Positions 20,045-37,481 of a stretch of DNA of 49,931 bases are shown piece after piece. A program made the translations under genes and the position numbers. A model generated the notes under the pieces. That model searched no databases. It was not told the DNA's origin and was given only the letters and a program-made list of their open reading frames with translations. Location of the stretch: positions 1-49,931 of the forward strand of contig CAYOFZ010000001.1 in the NCBI GenBank assembly GCA_964403315.1, given 5' to 3'. The first letter of the stretch is position 1. Each line of letters begins with the position of its first letter. The DNA is from an uncultured Halobacteriales archaeon. GTDB taxonomy: Archaea > Halobacteriota > Halobacteria > Halobacteriales > Halalkalicoccaceae.

Positions 20045-20330
20045 GACCGACGCGCCTCGGTGGGCGCGGGTGTGGGAGGCCGTCGTGCCATCCAACCAGA
20101 CAATCATTACAGGCCTATTCGGAATCTGGGTACTGACTGGTGCCTTTGTGATCTGTTCGCTTCTGTTCGGCTCTATCGCCGGTGCGGTTTTACACGGTTC
20201 CACAGCGCCGGCATGGTCCTTGTCGAAAACAATCTGGGTCGGTGCCCCGATTACACTCGTCATCGCGGCGTTCGCCGCCGCGAACTGGTACGCACACACC
20301 CGCGCAAAGGACGGTGGTTCAAATGACTGA
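20037..20330 (+). CDS. membrane protein (3 TM)
   Basis: 97 aa from ATG 20037, overlapping the upstream stop. Confidence 0.55.
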   Translation: MSETDAPRWARVWEAVVPSNQTIITGLFGIWVLTGAFVICSLLFGSIAGAVLHGSTAPAWSLSKTIWVGAPITLVIAAFAAANWYAHTRAKDGGSND

Positions 20331-20907
20331 GACCGAACTCGCACTCGCCGCCGGACGCGTGGGCGACGTTTGCGACGCGATTGATGCCGAGGTCTCACCG
20401 GCCGTCCGCGACCGCGCCGAGGGATTCGCCCGCCGCGCCGACCACGAACACCCGATCAACCGCTCGCCCGGCGTGGTGGCCGCGAGTGCGGTGTATCTCG
20501 CCGCGTTGCTCGAAAACGAAAAGATAACACAACGGCCGCTCGCCGACGGCGCAGGGGTGAGCACGACCGCGATTCGAGAGTGTTATCACGAACTGTTCGA
20601 ACACGAGGGGCTCGGCGAGCAGTTCACGCTGGGAAAGCGAAGCGGGGGCGACGGAGGTGACGAACCGATCGCGGTGCTCACCACGCCGCCGGTCGTTCGC
20701 GTATGCATCGGGGTCGTGATTGCGCTTTTCGTCGGGGTGCTCGTCGCGCACCACCTCCTCGTCGAATCGGCGGGTGTGGACACCTACCGCGGGTTTGCCG
20801 AGAACGCCCCGACGGTCGTGGACCTGTGGCCGGTCGTCGCGCTGGTGGCGCTGTTGGCGCTGGCCGTTACGGCGTGGCCGTACGTGCTGGGAGGGGTCGG
20901 ACGATGA
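20323..20907 (+). CDS. single cyclin-fold TFB/TFIIB-like domain fused to C-terminal TM helices
   Basis: 194 aa from ATG 20323. NRSPGVVAASAVYLAALLENEKITQRPLADGAGVSTTAIRECYHEL matches the TFB cyclin-repeat/HTH pattern. Two C-terminal hydrophobic helices. Confidence 0.65.
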   Translation: MTETELALAAGRVGDVCDAIDAEVSPAVRDRAEGFARRADHEHPINRSPGVVAASAVYLAALLENEKITQRPLADGAGVSTTAIRECYHELFEHEGLGEQFTLGKRSGGDGGDEPIAVLTTPPVVRVCIGVVIALFVGVLVAHHLLVESAGVDTYRGFAENAPTVVDLWPVVALVALLALAVTAWPYVLGGVGR

Positions 20908-29961: not shown

Positions 29962-30111
29962 ATGACGCACACCTGCGCCTGCGGTTTCGAGGCCGCGTCG
30001 ATGGGCGCGTTCGTCGACCACGTGAGCGACGAGCACGACGCGTTCGACATCGCCGTCAACGCGCTGCTGGCAGAGCGTCCCAGCACGGCCGGACCCGAGG
30101 TGACGCCATGA
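29962..30111 (+). CDS. 49-aa C2H2-like mini-protein
   Basis: Not in the track: MTHTCACGFEAASMGAFVDHVSDEHDAF... Confidence 0.35.
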   Translation: MTHTCACGFEAASMGAFVDHVSDEHDAFDIAVNALLAERPSTAGPEVTP

Positions 30112-30125
30112 CACCAACAGCCGGG

Positions 30126-30349
30126 CTGCAAGGGCCGACATCCGAACCTGCAAGGAAAAATACGCGATCGCCCGAGGGCGCGGCATTGGCCACGCTGGAA
30201 AGTGCAGCACGCAGCGAGATAAGAGCCTGTATCCCCGCCGTCCAAATTCATACCGGAGGAGTTCCCTGCCGTCCGATATGCCGCGTTTTAAGTGCTGGCC
30301 GGTCGCCTGCAAGCCTTGCAGGAATCGGTGAGACAGGTGTCCTGCAAGG
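30126..30349. repeat. iteron cluster, five copies of CCTGCAAGG including one palindromic pair
   Basis: Copies at 30126, 30147, 30306 and 30341, plus an inverted copy at 30314. 30306-30322 reads CCTGCAAG-C-CTTGCAGG. The only ORF across the region has non-protein-like composition. Confidence 0.6.
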
Positions 30350-30385
30350 ATCGCGAGTGTGGGCGTTCGTGGGTGGTGTCGCGAC

Positions 30386-30619: not shown

Positions 30620-30888
30620 AGTTGAATCGCCCCGCGAACACCCGCGAGCGGCCGACCTTTCCCCAGTTTCGCGAGCGGTTCGGGGAGGACCCCGCCCGCA
30701 TCCTGCATTCGGATCTCGACCCGACGCCGCGGCTCAAAGCGATCGAGGATCCCGACCTGTTGCGCGCGTACATCCACGTCGAGGCCGAACGCGACACGCC
30801 CGATCGGACGTTGATCGGCTGGTGCAATCGGCGGATTGAGACGCTCGAAGAGAGATCGGCGGTCGATGGTGAGGTGAGTGATCCATGA
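30616..30888 (+). CDS. hypothetical protein
   Basis: 90-aa ORF, ATGA-coupled to the ATPase gene. Confidence 0.5.
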   Translation: MKLNRPANTRERPTFPQFRERFGEDPARILHSDLDPTPRLKAIEDPDLLRAYIHVEAERDTPDRTLIGWCNRRIETLEERSAVDGEVSDP

Positions 30889-32591
30889 GCGACGCAGAGA
30901 CCATTCCGTTCGACGCCGTGGGCGAGACGACACTCCCGATCGTCGAGTTGCTGACCGGGCGTGGCTTCATCACCGGCAAAAGCGGATCGGGGAAATCGAA
31001 CACCGCCTCCGTCGTCGTTGAAGAGCTTCTCGACCGCGGGTTTCCGGTAATGATCATCGATACGGACGGCGAATACTGGGGCCTGAAGGAGGACTACGAA
31101 CTTCTCCACGTCGGGGCGGACGAGGAGTGTGACCTTCAGATCGGTCCGGAGCACGCGGAAAAACTCGCTGACCTGGCGTTGGCGCAGTCCGTTCCCATCA
31201 TCCTCGACGTGTCCGGGTACCTCGACGAAGACGAAGCGAGCGCACTGGTTAGAGAGACGGCATCGGCACTGTTTTCAAAGGAGAAGAAACTCAACAAGCC
31301 GTTCCTCCTGCTCGTCGAAGAGATCCACGAGTACCTGCCCGAAGGCGCTGGGAGCGACGAGACCGCGCGGATGCTGACCCGCGTGGCAAAGCGCGGGCGG
31401 AAACGTGGTCTCGGTCTCTGTGGGATGTCACAGCGCCCAGCAGACGTCAAGAAGGACTTCATCACACAGTGCGACTGGCTGATGTGGCACCGGTTGACGT
31501 GGGAGAACGATACGAAGGTTGTCGGCCGCGTTATTGGCACCGATTACAGGGAGTCGGTACAGGACCTCGCAGACGGCGAGGCATTCCTGATGGCGGACTT
31601 TCTCGACGACGACCGCCAGCGCGTCCAGGTCCGACGAAAGCGGACGTTCGACGCGGGCGCGACGCCCGATCTCGGCGACTACGAGCGCCCCGAACTGAAG
31701 AGTGTCGGTGGTGACCTCGTTTCCGAACTCGAAGGAATCTCCGATCGCGAACAGCAGCGCCAGGATCGGATCGCCCAGCTCGAAGCCGTCGTCGATGAGC
31801 GAGAGGCGACGATCGACGACCTCCGGGACGAACTGCAACAGGCCAGAGACATGACCGATATGGCAGACAAGTTCTCGGAAGCGTTGATAGAGTCCGCCAG
31901 CGGTGACTCCGGCGAAGCGATCGAATCCCAGATCGAAGAGATCAAAGAGGAAAAGAACGCCCGGATCGCCGAACTCGAGCGGGGGAACGAATCGCTTCGC
32001 GACGAGCTTCGCGAGCGTCGCGAGGAACTCACCGAAGTGCGAGATCGCGTCGACGAACTCGAAGAGTACGAGCAAGCGGTCGAAAATCTCGACGAGCTTC
32101 GCGAGGCCGCCCAGCGGATGACCGACGCGCTGGGGGTCGAGACCGGGGGCGACGACAAACTTCGCGAACGAGTCCAACGGCAATCCGACGAGATCGACCG
32201 CCTGCAGGCCGAGGTGCAACGGCTCGAAGACGCAAGTGACGCGCCACGCGTCCCGACCGAGTACCGCGAGTTCGTTTCGGATCCGGTTGTCGAAGCCGCG
32301 ATCGAAGATGCGACGAGCCAGGCCACCACCTCCCAGCGCTACGTCAAAGGCGTGGTGGCCGCGATAATCCAGGAGGGTGGCCCCGTGGACTACGAGACCG
32401 TCGCCGAGTATCTCGGGTTGAGCGGGACCGAACACGTCTCGAAAGCCAAGTCCGCGCTGGAGGCCCGTGGTGTCGTCACGGAGGTGTCCAAGCGGCCGAT
32501 GGAGATCGACTTCGACATGGACGCGATCGCCGAGATCAAAGCCCGGAACGAACGGCGTAAGCAGGCCGAATCGATCATGGAGGATCTATGA
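30885..32591 (+). CDS. HerA/DUF87-like P-loop ATPase with long acidic coiled coil and C-terminal wHTH
   Basis: Walker A GKSGSGKSNT. Walker B FLLLVEEIHEY. CGMSQRPADV. Heptad-rich aa 290-480. The C-terminus is wHTH-like. Confidence 0.8.
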   Translation: MSDAETIPFDAVGETTLPIVELLTGRGFITGKSGSGKSNTASVVVEELLDRGFPVMIIDTDGEYWGLKEDYELLHVGADEECDLQIGPEHAEKLADLALAQSVPIILDVSGYLDEDEASALVRETASALFSKEKKLNKPFLLLVEEIHEYLPEGAGSDETARMLTRVAKRGRKRGLGLCGMSQRPADVKKDFITQCDWLMWHRLTWENDTKVVGRVIGTDYRESVQDLADGEAFLMADFLDDDRQRVQVRRKRTFDAGATPDLGDYERPELKSVGGDLVSELEGISDREQQRQDRIAQLEAVVDEREATIDDLRDELQQARDMTDMADKFSEALIESASGDSGEAIESQIEEIKEEKNARIAELERGNESLRDELRERREELTEVRDRVDELEEYEQAVENLDELREAAQRMTDALGVETGGDDKLRERVQRQSDEIDRLQAEVQRLEDASDAPRVPTEYREFVSDPVVEAAIEDATSQATTSQRYVKGVVAAIIQEGGPVDYETVAEYLGLSGTEHVSKAKSALEARGVVTEVSKRPMEIDFDMDAIAEIKARNERRKQAESIMEDL

Positions 32592-33037
32592 GCTCGCAGA
32601 GTAAGGAGATCGGGACGGCGATCGAAACGCAACTCTGCCAGCAAAATGACTGGGAGCGCGTTGATGGCGCACTCGAGGAGCCGGACGCGATCAACGACAG
32701 CGGCGAACCGTTCGAGATCAAGGGGGCCCGAAAAACGATCAGTAACGGTGAGGGGGAGACTGCCGGTCGGTTCTATCTCCGGTACCGGGCGCATCAAGCC
32801 CTCATCGAAAACGATGGCAGCTATGCGCTATCGGTGTATGAGTATGCCGACGGCGCAGACATCGAGATCCTCGTAACCGAGATCGTCTCGGCGCAGGACG
32901 TCGACGAACTGATCGGGGACTGGACAACCGTCGATCGCCCCGGTGAAGTAGCTGTCGCGAAGTTATCTCATCACTGTTTCGACCTGCTTCCGGAGCTGGG
33001 CTCGGGGCGTTCCAACGGAGGTGGTCGTGATGTCTGA
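32588..33037 (+). CDS. PD-(D/E)xK nuclease (Hjc or restriction-endonuclease-like)
   Basis: 149-aa ORF. IGTAIETQL helix, then PDAINDSGEPFEIKGA (D..ExK). ATGA-coupled to the ATPase. Confidence 0.55.
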   Translation: MSSQSKEIGTAIETQLCQQNDWERVDGALEEPDAINDSGEPFEIKGARKTISNGEGETAGRFYLRYRAHQALIENDGSYALSVYEYADGADIEILVTEIVSAQDVDELIGDWTTVDRPGEVAVAKLSHHCFDLLPELGSGRSNGGGRDV

Positions 33038-34229: not shown

Positions 34230-34743
34230 GCACGAGCCTTCGCAGTTCGTCGACGCGCGGACAAGCGCCGTGCTCAGCGACGATCGAACGTATCGCTACC
34301 GGCTGCGGCGGACGTGGGACGACGAGAAGCCGACCGTTGCATTTCTTATGCTGAACCCGAGCACGGCCGACGAAACCGAAGACGACCCGACGATTCGGCG
34401 CTGCATCGGCTATGCGAAACGGTGGGGCTATGGGACGCTCCTCGTCGGGAATCTGTTCGCGCTTCGGGCCTCCAATCCGGCGCAGCTCGCCGAGCACCCT
34501 GATCCCGTGGGGCCTGAGAACGACGAGTACCTGCGATCGATCTGCTCGGACGATCCTCTCGTAGTCGCGGCGTGGGGACAGAACGGCACACTGGACGCTC
34601 GCGGACGAGAGGTGGCCGCTCTGCTCGATGTCGAACTCTTTGCTCTGGAAACGACGAAGGACGGCCACCCAGTGCATCCGCTGTACCAGCCGTTGGACGC
34701 TGATCTCGAACGATTCGAGTACGGAGCTGATCGCGATGACTGA
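34222..34743 (+). CDS. DUF1643-family protein
   Basis: 173 aa from ATG 34222. YRYRLRRTW..VAFLMLNPSTAD..DPTIRRCIGYA..GNLFALRAS is the family signature as I recall it. Confidence 0.75.
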   Translation: MSEHEPSQFVDARTSAVLSDDRTYRYRLRRTWDDEKPTVAFLMLNPSTADETEDDPTIRRCIGYAKRWGYGTLLVGNLFALRASNPAQLAEHPDPVGPENDEYLRSICSDDPLVVAAWGQNGTLDARGREVAALLDVELFALETTKDGHPVHPLYQPLDADLERFEYGADRDD

Positions 34744-36550
34744 CCCCTTCCGGCTCGTCATCGTCGACCTGTTCTGTGGCGGTGGCGGGTTCTCGACCGG
34801 GATGGTTTCGGCGCTACTCGATCACTTCGATGACGTCATCTCTGCGGAGACTGGCGTCCCTCGCGAGGAGATCGAGGAACGTCACCCGGCCGTCCAGGAT
34901 TGGCTCGCCGATAACGTCCTGCTCGTCGCGGTTAACCACGATGAGCACGCAGTTGCGACCTACGAGGCGAACCACCCGTGGGCCATCGTCTACGAGGCGA
35001 AGGTGCAGAACCTCCACCCGCCCCAGGCCGTCACGGTCGAGCACGAGGGCGAGGAGATCATCGTCCGGCCGGACATCGTGATCGGCGGTCCGTCGTGCAT
35101 CCCCTGGAGCAAGGCGAACAACGGGATGGCGAAGGACAACCAGCTCCGGATGGCTCCCGATCACGTCAAGCACTGGCTCGAGCTGCTGCTCCCGAAGCAG
35201 TTCCTCCTGGAGAACGTCGAGGGGCTGCTGAAGTGGGGTCCCACAGTGTGGGAGGACGGCGAACCGCGGATGATAAAGGACGGCTCCCTATTCGAGCGGT
35301 GGGTCGGCGACCTCCGCGCGATCGGCTACACCGTCGAGTGGGACACATTCTACGCCCACGACTACGGCGACGCGCAGTCCCGGAAGCGTCTGTTCGTGAT
35401 GGGGCGACTGGACTACGAACCGCAGTGGCCGGAGCCGACGCACTCGGAAGATGGGGCCGGAGTGACCGACCCCTACCGACCGGCCGCCGACGTGATCGAC
35501 TGGACGGATCCCGGGATGAGCCTCTGGCGTCGCGATCGCGACCACCCGAACGTCCACACCACGCTGAAGTACACGACCATGCGCCGGGTTGCCGAGGGGA
35601 TTCGACGCCACTGCGCCGACGAGCTGTCCCCCTTCGCCGACGCCCTGGACCGGATCGGGCGCGTCAACCCTGAGACGGACGACGTCGACCCGGAGGCGTT
35701 CGTCGACGTGACCGAGCTGCGAGCCGACGCCGTCCCGATCGAAGAGGCGGCCGAGGCAGCAGCGGAGCGCGACGACCCGTTCCTCGTCGAAGGCCCCGCG
35801 CTCGAGGTGGGCCAGGAGGCCCTCGAAGAGCGGTACGGGCTGTGCGTCCCCTACCTCCTCGGCCAGCACGGAGGGTCGGTCGCCCGCGACGCGACCGAGA
35901 AGCCGGTCCAGTCGATCGCGACGAAAGGTTACATCAGCCTCACGACGGCGGAGCCGTTCGTCCTCCCTCGGAACGGCCGGCAGCGAGACGAGTTCAGCAA
36001 CGGTACTCGCGACCCGGAGGAGCGGCCGCTTCACACGGTCACCGCTCACAACCACGATGGCTGGCTCGTGAGTCCGTACCTCGTCCCCTTCTACGGTGAA
36101 CGAGAGAACCAGTCCCCGCGGACGCACGACGTCGAGGAGCCGCTCCCGAACGTCCCGGCATCGGCCATCAAACAGGCCGCCGTATCGCCGTACCTCGTCG
36201 TCTACAACGGCGCTTCGAACTGCGCGGACATCGAGGCACCGATGCCGACGGCCACCGCGACGGATCGCCTCGCGCTGGTCGTCCCGGAGGCGTTTCCCTG
36301 GGGCCTCGACCTGCGGTTCCGGCTGCTGAAGCCCAGCGAACTCGCGATGGCCCAGGGCTTCCCTCCGGACTACGAGTTTGTCACCGACACCAAACGCCAG
36401 CACACGAAGTTGATCGGGAACGCTGTGCCGGTCAATCTGGCGGAGTCGATGTGCCGGACGCTCCTAGAGCCGACGGATACTCCGACGCTGAACAACTTCG
36501 GCGATGGGCCGCGACCGGCGGCCGAAGGGGTGGTCTCGGACGATGACTGA
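34736..36550 (+). CDS. dcm: DNA (cytosine-5) methyltransferase
   Basis: 604 aa from ATG 34736. Motif I DLFCGGGGFS, PC motif GGPSCIPWS, ENV, QSRKRLFV, GNAVP. Long variable region. Confidence 0.9.
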   Translation: MTDPFRLVIVDLFCGGGGFSTGMVSALLDHFDDVISAETGVPREEIEERHPAVQDWLADNVLLVAVNHDEHAVATYEANHPWAIVYEAKVQNLHPPQAVTVEHEGEEIIVRPDIVIGGPSCIPWSKANNGMAKDNQLRMAPDHVKHWLELLLPKQFLLENVEGLLKWGPTVWEDGEPRMIKDGSLFERWVGDLRAIGYTVEWDTFYAHDYGDAQSRKRLFVMGRLDYEPQWPEPTHSEDGAGVTDPYRPAADVIDWTDPGMSLWRRDRDHPNVHTTLKYTTMRRVAEGIRRHCADELSPFADALDRIGRVNPETDDVDPEAFVDVTELRADAVPIEEAAEAAAERDDPFLVEGPALEVGQEALEERYGLCVPYLLGQHGGSVARDATEKPVQSIATKGYISLTTAEPFVLPRNGRQRDEFSNGTRDPEERPLHTVTAHNHDGWLVSPYLVPFYGERENQSPRTHDVEEPLPNVPASAIKQAAVSPYLVVYNGASNCADIEAPMPTATATDRLALVVPEAFPWGLDLRFRLLKPSELAMAQGFPPDYEFVTDTKRQHTKLIGNAVPVNLAESMCRTLLEPTDTPTLNNFGDGPRPAAEGVVSDDD

Positions 36551-37481
36551 CGGAGATGTCGGATTGGACGAGCTCGAAACACTCAATGAGAAGAGTGAAG
36601 ACGAACTCTCAGATGCAGAGGTCACGAGTAAAATCAAGCTCTCGGTAAAACGGCGGTTCGATTACCCAATGTGGTTGATGGTGTTTGAGTTCCAGAATCG
36701 AGACGGCAAGCGAGCGGATTGTCTGGCGTTCAACACCGCTGCGTCCCGCAACTTCAAACTCGTGGGTTATGAGTTCAAGGCGAGTCGGAGTGATTGGCTC
36801 TCTGAGAAAAAAGATCCGGAGAAATCGGACTACTTCATCGAGCTCTGTGATGAGTGGTACGTCGTGGCAGGACGTCGTGGGATCGTCCAGGAATCCGAAT
36901 TACCCGACGGGTGGGGGTTATTGGAACTGAAACCCAGTGGGCAACTTTACAAACTCGTAGAGTCCGATCTCGACGACGATCTACAGAACGTGGTGCCGGA
37001 TCGCCGATTCTACGCGAAATTTATGAAAAAAGCAGTCGGTAATAGTTCCAACTTCGACCAGCAAGACCTCCGCGAAGCCAAACGACGAGGGTATGATGAA
37101 GCAATGGACGAAGCCGTTGAGGAGCATCTCGACTACGAGACGGAGAAATTGAATAAGAAGGCCGAGAGTTTCGATAAGATCAGGGATAGTGAGCTCCACC
37201 TCCGTCCCCCGGTGAGTGACGATCGGGTTGCGAGGTTGAAGAAGGCGGAAACGTTGATACAGTCGGTCGAGTCGGACGGCTTCTCCAGTCTTCGTGGAAA
37301 CATCGACAGGTTACATACGACGTTTGAATCCACGCTCGAATCCTTCGCGCGAGATGTCGATCAACTGCATGGCCTGATGGACGAACTTCAAGTTGAACTA
37401 GATGACGTCGCTGCTACCGGAGATGATCCATCAACAGGAAAGGGAGATGGACAACCAGACGAGGGTGATGCAGACCGATGA
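36543..37481 (+). CDS. MmcB-like PD-(D/E)xK nuclease domain fused to a coiled-coil tail
   Basis: 312 aa from ATG 36543 (overlaps the dcm 3' end by 8 nt; its ATG lies 2 nt upstream of the dcm TGA). ADCLAF..LVGYEFKASRSDW..YFIELCDEWYVV..LPDGWGLLEL. AT-richer than dcm. Confidence 0.6.
   Translation: MTDGDVGLDELETLNEKSEDELSDAEVTSKIKLSVKRRFDYPMWLMVFEFQNRDGKRADCLAFNTAASRNFKLVGYEFKASRSDWLSEKKDPEKSDYFIELCDEWYVVAGRRGIVQESELPDGWGLLELKPSGQLYKLVESDLDDDLQNVVPDRRFYAKFMKKAVGNSSNFDQQDLREAKRRGYDEAMDEAVEEHLDYETEKLNKKAESFDKIRDSELHLRPPVSDDRVARLKKAETLIQSVESDGFSSLRGNIDRLHTTFESTLESFARDVDQLHGLMDELQVELDDVAATGDDPSTGKGDGQPDEGDADR

Follow-up and report, generated by a model that had tools for sequence, protein, structure and literature searches.

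The window analyzed here, a 49.9-kb stretch of DNA that constitutes the entire contig C1 of a genome bin (2.1 Mb, 77% complete) from an uncultured Halobacteriales archaeon, carries two overlapping genes, the first encoding a 568-residue ATPase of the HerA clade with an acidic coiled coil and a C-terminal winged helix-turn-helix (wHTH) domain, and the second a 149-residue nuclease of the PDDEXK_16 family. The original prediction, made from the sequence alone, coupled the two as a pair that could act as a packaging or translocation motor, a recombination module or a defense system. We consider it probable that the two are mobile-element genes independent of each other, which lie side by side in one polycistron and are coupled in translation but do not form a dedicated module. 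This reading is directly supported by the family memberships, folds and motifs of both proteins, by their distribution, and by the absence of a conserved linkage.

Genomic Neighborhoods of the ATPase and the Nuclease

The neighborhoods of the two genes were compared reciprocally. The PDDEXK_16 hidden Markov model, run on each of 37 ATPase loci (that of the window and 36 others), matched the window's own locus and none of the other 36, and, in the opposite direction, this ATPase stood beside PDDEXK_16 at none of 37 distinct loci, the 30 best loci included. The proposed pair was therefore not seen to recur in this survey of 36 + 37 other loci, and a conserved ATPase–nuclease module was rejected on the strength of these two tests. 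The ATPase relatives L039 and L068 (70–83% identical) are not accompanied by the nuclease, their downstream genes being different or convergent (L068, with 83% core identity, has a gene for a 192-residue ribbon-helix-helix-like protein upstream and a convergent gene pair downstream), and two short-loop PDDEXK_16 relatives on small contigs are preceded by tiny open reading frames (ORFs) and no ATPase. Furthermore, no partner gene is conserved around either the mobile or the chromosomal ATPases (36 + 20 loci), and the operon neighbors found in the window are absent beside the ATPase relatives, bar an occasional Dcm or DUF1643 (36 loci). Judged from these gene neighborhoods, the ATPase and the nuclease are not a dedicated two-part machine, and their pairing appears to be incidental.

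The junction between the two genes has the sequence ATGA, such that the ATG of the 149-residue ORF lies within the TGA stop of the ATPase, and, with both genes in the same direction, the two are almost certainly cotranslated. This overlap is not specific to the pair, because overlaps of 4 nt are the local norm in the operon, occurring at 4 of 5 consecutive junctions of the polycistron.

Several points weigh against the reading of two independent genes. Cotranslation leaves a local, element-specific cooperation possible; the locus counts leave out the closest relatives of the small protein (P0122–P0124, 46–52% identity, from metagenomes), and most comparison loci came with flanks of 1.5 kb only. 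The translocase and endonuclease activities would follow from the predicted folds and motifs, in two families neither of which has been characterized experimentally. HerA-type ATPases also pair with nucleases elsewhere, as in HerA–NurA and HerA–DUF4297. Finally, a review (PMC7776575) mentions a reported interaction between Hjc and HerA.

Taken with the ATGA coupling, a HerA-clade core that matches the PADLOC HerA model and the HerA–Sir2, HerA–DUF4297 and TdpAB structures, and a nuclease fold with an intact catalytic motif, the reported Hjc–HerA interaction would suit an element-specific helicase–nuclease machine like HerA–NurA or the defense HerA–effector systems, in which the ring feeds DNA to the nuclease for end resection, recombination or the degradation of foreign DNA. 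We regard such a machine as very unlikely, as the adjacency is confined to the window locus, the chromosomal orthologues of the ATPase stand alone, the overlapping junctions are generic in the operon, and the ATPase is devoid of the HAS barrel, on which NurA reportedly docks in canonical HerA. The gene downstream of the ATPase also encodes a PDDEXK_16 protein and not NurA, and the conserved adjacency of an effector that marks the defense systems was seen in none of the 36 relatives.

Architecture of the ATPase

Both ORFs, their lengths, the Walker motifs and the ATGA overlap were as originally described, as judged from the ORF list and from reading the sequence. The ATPase carries Walker A (GKSGSGKS) at residue 31 and Walker B (LLLVEE) at residue 141, followed by the HerA-type motifs RGRKRG at residue 170 and SQRP at residue 182. 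Profile matches over residues ~20–240 place it in the HerA/DUF87 clade, with the core matching Pfam DUF87 at 2.7e-10 and PADLOC HerA at 4.6e-25. The HerA models of both NCBIfam and PADLOC cover only residues ~120–240, and the match to the NCBIfam HerA equivalog NF040819 is partial, scoring 60 bits where the cut-off is 970. Two further profiles were matched, PADLOC mad8 (positions 30–288 of 314, 5.3e-15; PADLOC has no curated cut-offs) and phrog_2666, annotated "terminase large subunit" (4.9e-21). When the family profile was compared with the PDB, HerA structures were matched at up to 6.7e-18, via the (E/R)GRKxG...SQRP block.

The AlphaFold model of the ATPase, built with 53 homologues (mean predicted local distance difference test score, pLDDT, of 82), has a RecA-like core at residues 1–257. 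Foldseek searches with this model returned HerA hexamers first (4d2i, E = 2e-12), and STIV2 B204 was almost wholly covered (TMt 0.77). The HerA/DUF87-like core of the original prediction is thus borne out by the DUF87, PADLOC HerA, PDB profile and Foldseek matches alike. No HAS barrel precedes the core in the model, in which the core begins at residue ~20, there being no room for one because Walker A is already at residue 31. Across the 36 loci, the core is 61–81% identical.

The linker contains a motif, RKRTFDAGATP (residues 251–261, window positions 31635–31667), which is invariant across the 53 homologues, with R251, K252, T254, D256, G258 and P261 as the invariant columns. The monomer model leaves this stretch disordered (pLDDT <50 at residues 258–274), and the motif might act as an arm between subunits or as a peptide that binds a partner. 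Beyond it, the model contains coiled-coil helices at residues 276–337, 343–415 and 423–450, in a region (residues 276–450) with 32% aspartate plus glutamate and a net charge of −31; the first helix alone is kept family-wide, and the chromosomal loci align to the first ~68 residues only. The C-terminal domain has a wHTH topology in the model (helix-helix-helix-strand-strand at residues 484–543, followed by a terminal helix), and its profile gives a weak match to the winged helix of TFE (E = 0.0025). The acidic coiled coil and the wHTH-like C-terminus described at the outset are therefore both present in the AlphaFold model, the latter with the TFE match in addition. A C-terminal domain of the window's type was found by tblastn in 15 of the 36 loci (9 of them distinct), all of the plasmid type. 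We found no transmembrane segment in the ATPase, and no membrane partner.

Compared with canonical archaeal HerA (Sulfolobus solfataricus, 4d2i) and with the HerA proteins of defense systems (HerA–Sir2, HerA–DUF4297, TdpA), the window ATPase belongs to the same clade, and shares with them Walker A and B and the (E/R)GRKxG...SQRP block. It differs from them in having neither the HAS barrel nor a NurA, Sir2 or DUF4297 partner, and in the addition of the invariant linker motif, the coiled coil and the C-terminal wHTH. The combination of coiled coil and wHTH had been proposed to be an unusual layout, which holds with respect to canonical HerA, but this layout is standard for the ATPase's own family of more than 2,300 members. 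The alternative that the ATPase belongs with the pleolipovirus NTPase was rejected, in that the BLASTP alignment with SNJ2 gp17 is restricted to the P-loop/Walker A (E = 0.052), and a tblastn search of the phage collection with the ATPase gave no pleolipovirus match. The ATPase clusters firmly with an uncharacterized family that has no nuclease association.

Distribution and Phylogeny of the ATPase Family

A word-seeded search with the ATPase yielded over 2,300 full-length homologues, the top 120 of which are of the same length and 48–72% identical over 74–100% of that length. The window ATPase is collinear over its full length with the other DUF87–coiled coil–wHTH members of this family, which is unnamed, its proteins being annotated "DUF87 / helicase HerA domain-containing protein". 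Of 401 Halobacteria genomes sampled, 377 (about 94%) encode a relative, in most cases as one match only, with about 65% identity across residues 15–340. The 20 chromosomal copies that were fetched with wide flanks all lie on contigs of 0.7–4.1 Mb, and the chromosomal ATPases share one design, comprising the core, the linker, the conserved first helix, a variable region (coiled coil or low-complexity acidic linker), and a wHTH-like domain at the C-terminus. Full-length relatives whose C-terminus is of the window type are rarer; they occur on small contigs, on contigs listed as viral by IMG/VR, and on plasmids (pHALXA03, pSTJ003, pCBA1158-3 and others).

In a tree of the cores, the chromosomal copies cluster according to the family of their host (clades f2 and f6 with 100% support), and the copies with the window-type C-terminus are scattered, with host families mixed. 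This pattern fits a vertically inherited cellular gene accompanied by horizontally moving mobile-element paralogues.

In mobile elements, the gene is found within replication or modification modules. The ATPase of locus L004, 69% identical to that of the window, is preceded by a gene for a 1151-residue PrimPol/NrS-1-like polymerase (L004:4542–7997) that ends 4 nt before the ATPase start, and is followed by two small ORFs and then Dcm; by its gene content, this ATPase is inside a putative replication module. Other mobile ATPases occur in plasmids that bear MCM and Dcm. As a separate observation, six plasmid-type loci (L044–L049) share a gene for a conserved 134-residue wHTH-like protein, absent from the window, which lies about 1 kb downstream of the ATPase in convergent orientation.

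Among the chromosomal loci, dinB/IMS (a Y-family polymerase, 4.8e-39) lies 0.4–1.9 kb upstream of the ATPase and on the same strand in 6 of 20 cases, drawn from three host families (L096, L098, L100, L103, L104 and L113, the related genomes among them not being independent), and at one of these loci a conserved 134-residue ORF lies between the two genes. Some Natrialbaceae ATPases follow a fragment of a helicase C-terminus (XPB/Rad25-like), as called by eye only. Together, the dinB and helicase-fragment leads suggest a DNA-damage context for the chromosomal ATPase.

The Upstream Repeat Cluster and a Possible Packaging Motor

The non-coding stretch at the head of the operon contains three direct copies of a short repeat and a near-palindrome, CCTGCAAG-C-CTTGCAGG. 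All 4 copies of the exact motif CTGCAAGG in the 49.9-kb window fall within positions 30126–30349, where 0.52 copies would be expected window-wide. The cluster is probably an operator or another protein-binding site, and is put forward here as a candidate on the basis of its layout. That the wHTH of the ATPase recognizes this cluster is a conjecture: the CTGCAAGG motif is absent near the ATPases of related loci, and no analogous unique repeat cluster was found upstream of the ATPase relatives, such that the relatives lend no support to the repeats as a wHTH recognition site.

FtsK gamma and Streptomyces TraB likewise combine a motor with a C-terminal wHTH, one that reads 8-bp DNA motifs, and the window gene shares with them both this order of domains, motor then winged helix, and a nearby cluster of 8–9-bp repeats; the resemblance is not accompanied by a sequence match. 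In contrast to FtsK and TraB, the window ATPase falls in the HerA clade, has a coiled coil of ~175 residues between the motor and the wHTH, and carries no membrane anchors, and its recognition of repeats is conjectural and unsupported in its relatives. STIV2 B204 (4kfr–4kfu) and the A32-like ATPases resemble it in a different respect, in that they too consist of a minimal stand-alone core, of about 200–250 residues, with B204 giving TMt values of 0.73–0.78. B204, which comes from a capsid-forming virus, is about 15% identical to the window ATPase and lacks both coiled coil and wHTH, whereas a conserved member of the window ATPase's family is encoded on the chromosome of nearly all Halobacteria.

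These likenesses raise the alternative of a packaging or transfer motor like STIV2 B204, the A32-type NTPases, pR1SE ORF25, FtsK or Streptomyces TraB, which, once loaded at the CCTGCAAGG repeats, would drive the DNA of the element into a particle or vesicle, or through a cell bridge. Such a motor would account for a core that superimposes on nearly all of B204, for the phrog_2666 "terminase large subunit" match, for the FtsK- and TraB-like layout, for the unique 8–9-bp repeat cluster at the operon head, and for mobile copies that pass from one host family to another and have a wHTH type of their own; moreover, plasmids of the pR1SE type have been proposed to load vesicles by means of a HerA/VirB4/B204-like ATPase (PMC10818511). 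We nevertheless consider this alternative unlikely, as a single, vertically inherited chromosomal orthologue in about 94% of Halobacteria is unexpected for a packaging enzyme, the protein has no transmembrane segment or membrane partner, the relatives lack the upstream repeat cluster, and no capsid, portal or vesicle-core gene was recognized among the window ORFs scanned. The ATPase domain of pR1SE ORF25 itself, at residues 135–565, is set apart by its description as having a different layout.

The PDDEXK_16 Nuclease

The 149-residue protein matches phrog_2095 at 1.6e-21, and it and its relatives are assigned to Pfam PF25941 (PDDEXK_16) in the database's precomputed annotation. An exhaustive HMMER search gave 106 representative homologues; with these and the more than 2,300 homologues of the ATPase, the features of both proteins are far beyond chance. 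In an alignment of 61 sequences, E13, D33, E43-x-K45, G60, H69 and Y79 are conserved, among which E13, D33, E43 and K45 are candidate catalytic residues. The structural model (pLDDT 82, predicted TM-score 0.79) has a restriction-endonuclease fold, and its matches among solved folds are NhoI (8rpx/8q5n, E = 9e-5), the Eco15I N-domain, PvuII (2e-3) and DpnI. The PD-(D/E)xK nuclease fold that was proposed for the small protein is thus supported by the model and the fold search, with D..ExK among the conserved residues of the alignment.

The proposed likeness to Hjc, in turn, does not extend to family level. A predicted PD-(D/E)xK fold with an E...D...ExK set is present, but the 149-residue protein has no match to Pfam Hjc (PF01870) at E ≤ 0.1 and none of the 61 aligned sequences matches this model, the fold search ranks Hjc (E values of about 1e-2 to 4e-2) below small restriction endonucleases, and the family profile does not match the HHTV-1 Holliday junction resolvase, gp65 (0.2% probability). 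Hjc membership was therefore rejected. A true Hjc is encoded on contig C36 of the host bin (PF01870, 1.6e-32), the sole PF01870 match in the host genome. To the small Type II/IIM and BisI-family restriction endonucleases, as to archaeal Hjc, the window protein is similar in fold and size, with identities of 12–16% and TM-scores of about 0.4–0.56, and the small-protein family has no sequence-level match to either group.

Close relatives of the protein in both fold and sequence occur in viruses. In the viral fold library, HHTV-1 gp72, SH1 ORF50 and an HHIV-2 protein were the top matches (TMq 0.72–0.78, root-mean-square deviation of about 2 Å, 26–31% identity), the family profile matches HHTV-1 gp72 with 99.4% probability in a profile–profile comparison, and SNJ2 gp22 was found as a further relative by tblastn. 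PDDEXK_16 occurs in pleolipo-, sphaerolipo- and tailed viruses of haloarchaea (SNJ2, HHTV-1, SH1 and HHIV-2), and in proviruses. A scan of viral contigs with the single small protein gave no match, and the family profile, compared by sequence with solved structures, gave spurious ABC-transporter matches only. The window protein is a divergent, short-loop member of the family, having 10 residues from D33 to E43, whereas most of its relatives are about 170 residues long, with an insert of ~25 residues between these two positions, a DUF7845 neighbor and no ATPase.

The PDDEXK_16 family is present in 213 of 401 sampled genomes, in up to 8 copies each, and its usual neighbor is DUF7845 (26 of 37 loci). 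We note, as an observation on the family at large, a recurrent block (L008–L037, for example L011:1501–3496) that consists of a Zn-ribbon ORF of ~60–80 residues, PDDEXK_16 (~173 residues), an ORF of ~97 residues and a large DUF7845 protein. This block is multicopy, at up to 8 per genome, occurs mostly in one host family, and corresponds to the gp22–gp19 region of the betapleolipovirus SNJ2 (L092:12951–16148); by gene order, the PDDEXK_16–DUF7845 loci are probably SNJ2-like proviruses. In HHTV-1 (L093:3902–5289, gp72–gp73), the PDDEXK_16 domain of gp72 has a C-terminal extension of ~90 residues and a DNA methyltransferase gene follows directly after it; HHTV-1 also has gp65 as a separate, annotated Holliday junction resolvase.

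Methyltransferases bear on a further alternative, namely, a restriction–modification or defense island in which PDDEXK_16 would be a small restriction endonuclease, with the Dcm gene 1.6 kb downstream in the window as its methylase and the ATPase as an accessory motor, as in methylation-associated defense systems. The best solved folds are indeed those of small restriction endonucleases (NhoI, Eco15I-N, PvuII and DpnI), PADLOC mad8 spans the whole ATPase core, the gene directly after HHTV-1 gp72 and one two genes downstream of the L090 relative encode methyltransferases (N6/N4 in the latter case), and 3 of about 7 distinct mobile ATPase loci have a C5 methylase gene close by. However, genuine methyltransferases, of mixed classes, lie within 1.5 kb of only about 7–9 of 37 PDDEXK_16 loci, a count that leaves out matches to the conserved ~60-residue ORF upstream of the C5 methylase query (26 of 37 with them), and the dominant partner is DUF7845, in the SNJ2-like provirus block. 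A family identity of 30–50% is also high for true Type II restriction endonucleases of differing specificities, most members of the ATPase family are chromosomal and stand alone, and the top folds NhoI, Eco15I and DpnI are methyl-dependent, and so would not be paired with a methylase. On this evidence, a restriction–modification or defense island seems quite improbable, and we retain the reading of two separate genes.

The Element and Its Polycistron

The coordinates of the features discussed are given in Table 1. The window, whose G+C content of 60–70% and acidic encoded proteins are in keeping with a haloarchaeon, represents a haloarchaeal mobile element of roughly 50 kb; a terminal-overlap test of the window was negative, giving no sign of circularity. 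The polycistron, a co-directional series of DNA-metabolism genes, extends from 30377 to about 38242 and is preceded by a non-coding stretch of ~270 bp (about 30110–30376). It comprises, in order, two small ORFs, the ATPase, the nuclease, Zn-ribbon mini-genes, DUF1643, the C5 methylase and a second nuclease-like gene. The first small ORF overlaps the second by 4 nt, has no Pfam match and has no relative in the 36 ATPase loci, and the second is not conserved beside the ATPase relatives of those loci.

Table 1. Coordinates of the ATPase, the Nuclease and Neighboring Features in the Window
Feature	Position	Strand	Description
CCTGCAAG(G) repeat cluster	30126..30349	.	224-bp non-coding stretch at the operon head
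Small ORF 1, 80 aa	30377..30619	+	ATG at 30377, after the non-coding repeat region
Small ORF 2, 90 aa	30616..30888	+	4-nt overlap with the ATPase start
ATPase ORF, 568 aa	30885..32591	+	ORF confirmed as described
ATPase core, residues 1–257	30885..31655	+	minimal HerA-clade P-loop domain without HAS barrel
Linker, residues ~251–275	31635..31709	+	family-invariant motif RKRTFDAGATP
Acidic helical (coiled-coil) region, residues 276–450	31710..32234	+	AlphaFold model
C-terminal region, residues 451–568	32235..32591	+	wHTH at 484–543 plus terminal helix
PDDEXK_16-family PD-(D/E)xK nuclease, 149 aa	32588..33037	+	phrog_2095, PF25941
Dcm (C5 methylase)	34628–36550		1.6 kb downstream of the nuclease gene; Pfam scan

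The second nuclease-like gene, at 36504–37481, overlaps the 3′ end of Dcm at the end of the polycistron, and matches phrog_14517 (3e-29) and phrog_5429, annotated "DNA repair protein" (1.7e-15). Elsewhere in the window, a TFIIB-repeat protein is encoded at 20182–20907 (Pfam TFIIB, 6.7e-10), which suggests that the element may carry its own transcription initiation factor. The Pfam scan found no Orc, MCM, PrimPol or Rep family among the 28 window ORFs that it covered.

Proposed Functions and Implications

The ATPase is a mobile-element paralogue, moving horizontally, of a family found in nearly all haloarchaea. By analogy with its HerA, FtsK and B204 relatives, it may assemble into a ring, presumably a hexamer, that moves along double-stranded DNA driven by ATP, with the tethered wHTH providing specificity for a DNA site or a partner. 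As the mobile copy has its own wHTH type, it probably serves the DNA of the element as the chromosomal copy serves the chromosome, and its role, as a stand-alone enzyme, could lie in the maintenance, processing or segregation of DNA. The PDDEXK_16 protein, independently of the ATPase, is predicted to be a Mg2+-dependent DNA endonuclease that would serve the replication or recombination of virus and plasmid DNA, or restriction-like functions.

The find as first described comes down to two common mobile-element genes that are neighbors in one element, and both are further members of existing but uncharacterized families. Our search of the literature on the haloarchaeal DUF87/HerA-like family, that of Haloferax included, found no characterization of it, and no FtsK-type translocase for haloarchaea turned up in the literature searched. 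HerA and NurA are absent from Haloferax volcanii (review PMC7776575). With haloarchaea described as being without HerA–NurA (PMC7776575), and with no FtsK-type translocase found, the ATPase family is a reasonable candidate for a DNA-handling role.

One could go further and hypothesize that this family is the missing FtsK-like, sequence-directed DNA translocase of haloarchaea, with a chromosomal copy that clears or processes the DNA of the chromosome, perhaps, as its repeated occurrence behind dinB hints, in connection with DNA damage, and with mobile versions whose swapped wHTH domains would recognize element repeats such as the CCTGCAAGG cluster, driving segregation or transfer through cell bridges or vesicles. 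We put this forward as a speculative and rather unlikely extension of the data.

For the haloarchaea, the finding brings into view a near-universal HerA-clade family with a coiled coil and a wHTH, which has separate mobile copies on plasmids and virus-like elements and is testable in Haloferax volcanii. The PDDEXK_16 assignment, for its part, ties a conserved provirus block, PDDEXK_16 with DUF7845, to a nuclease that haloarchaeal viruses of four morphologically different groups have in common.

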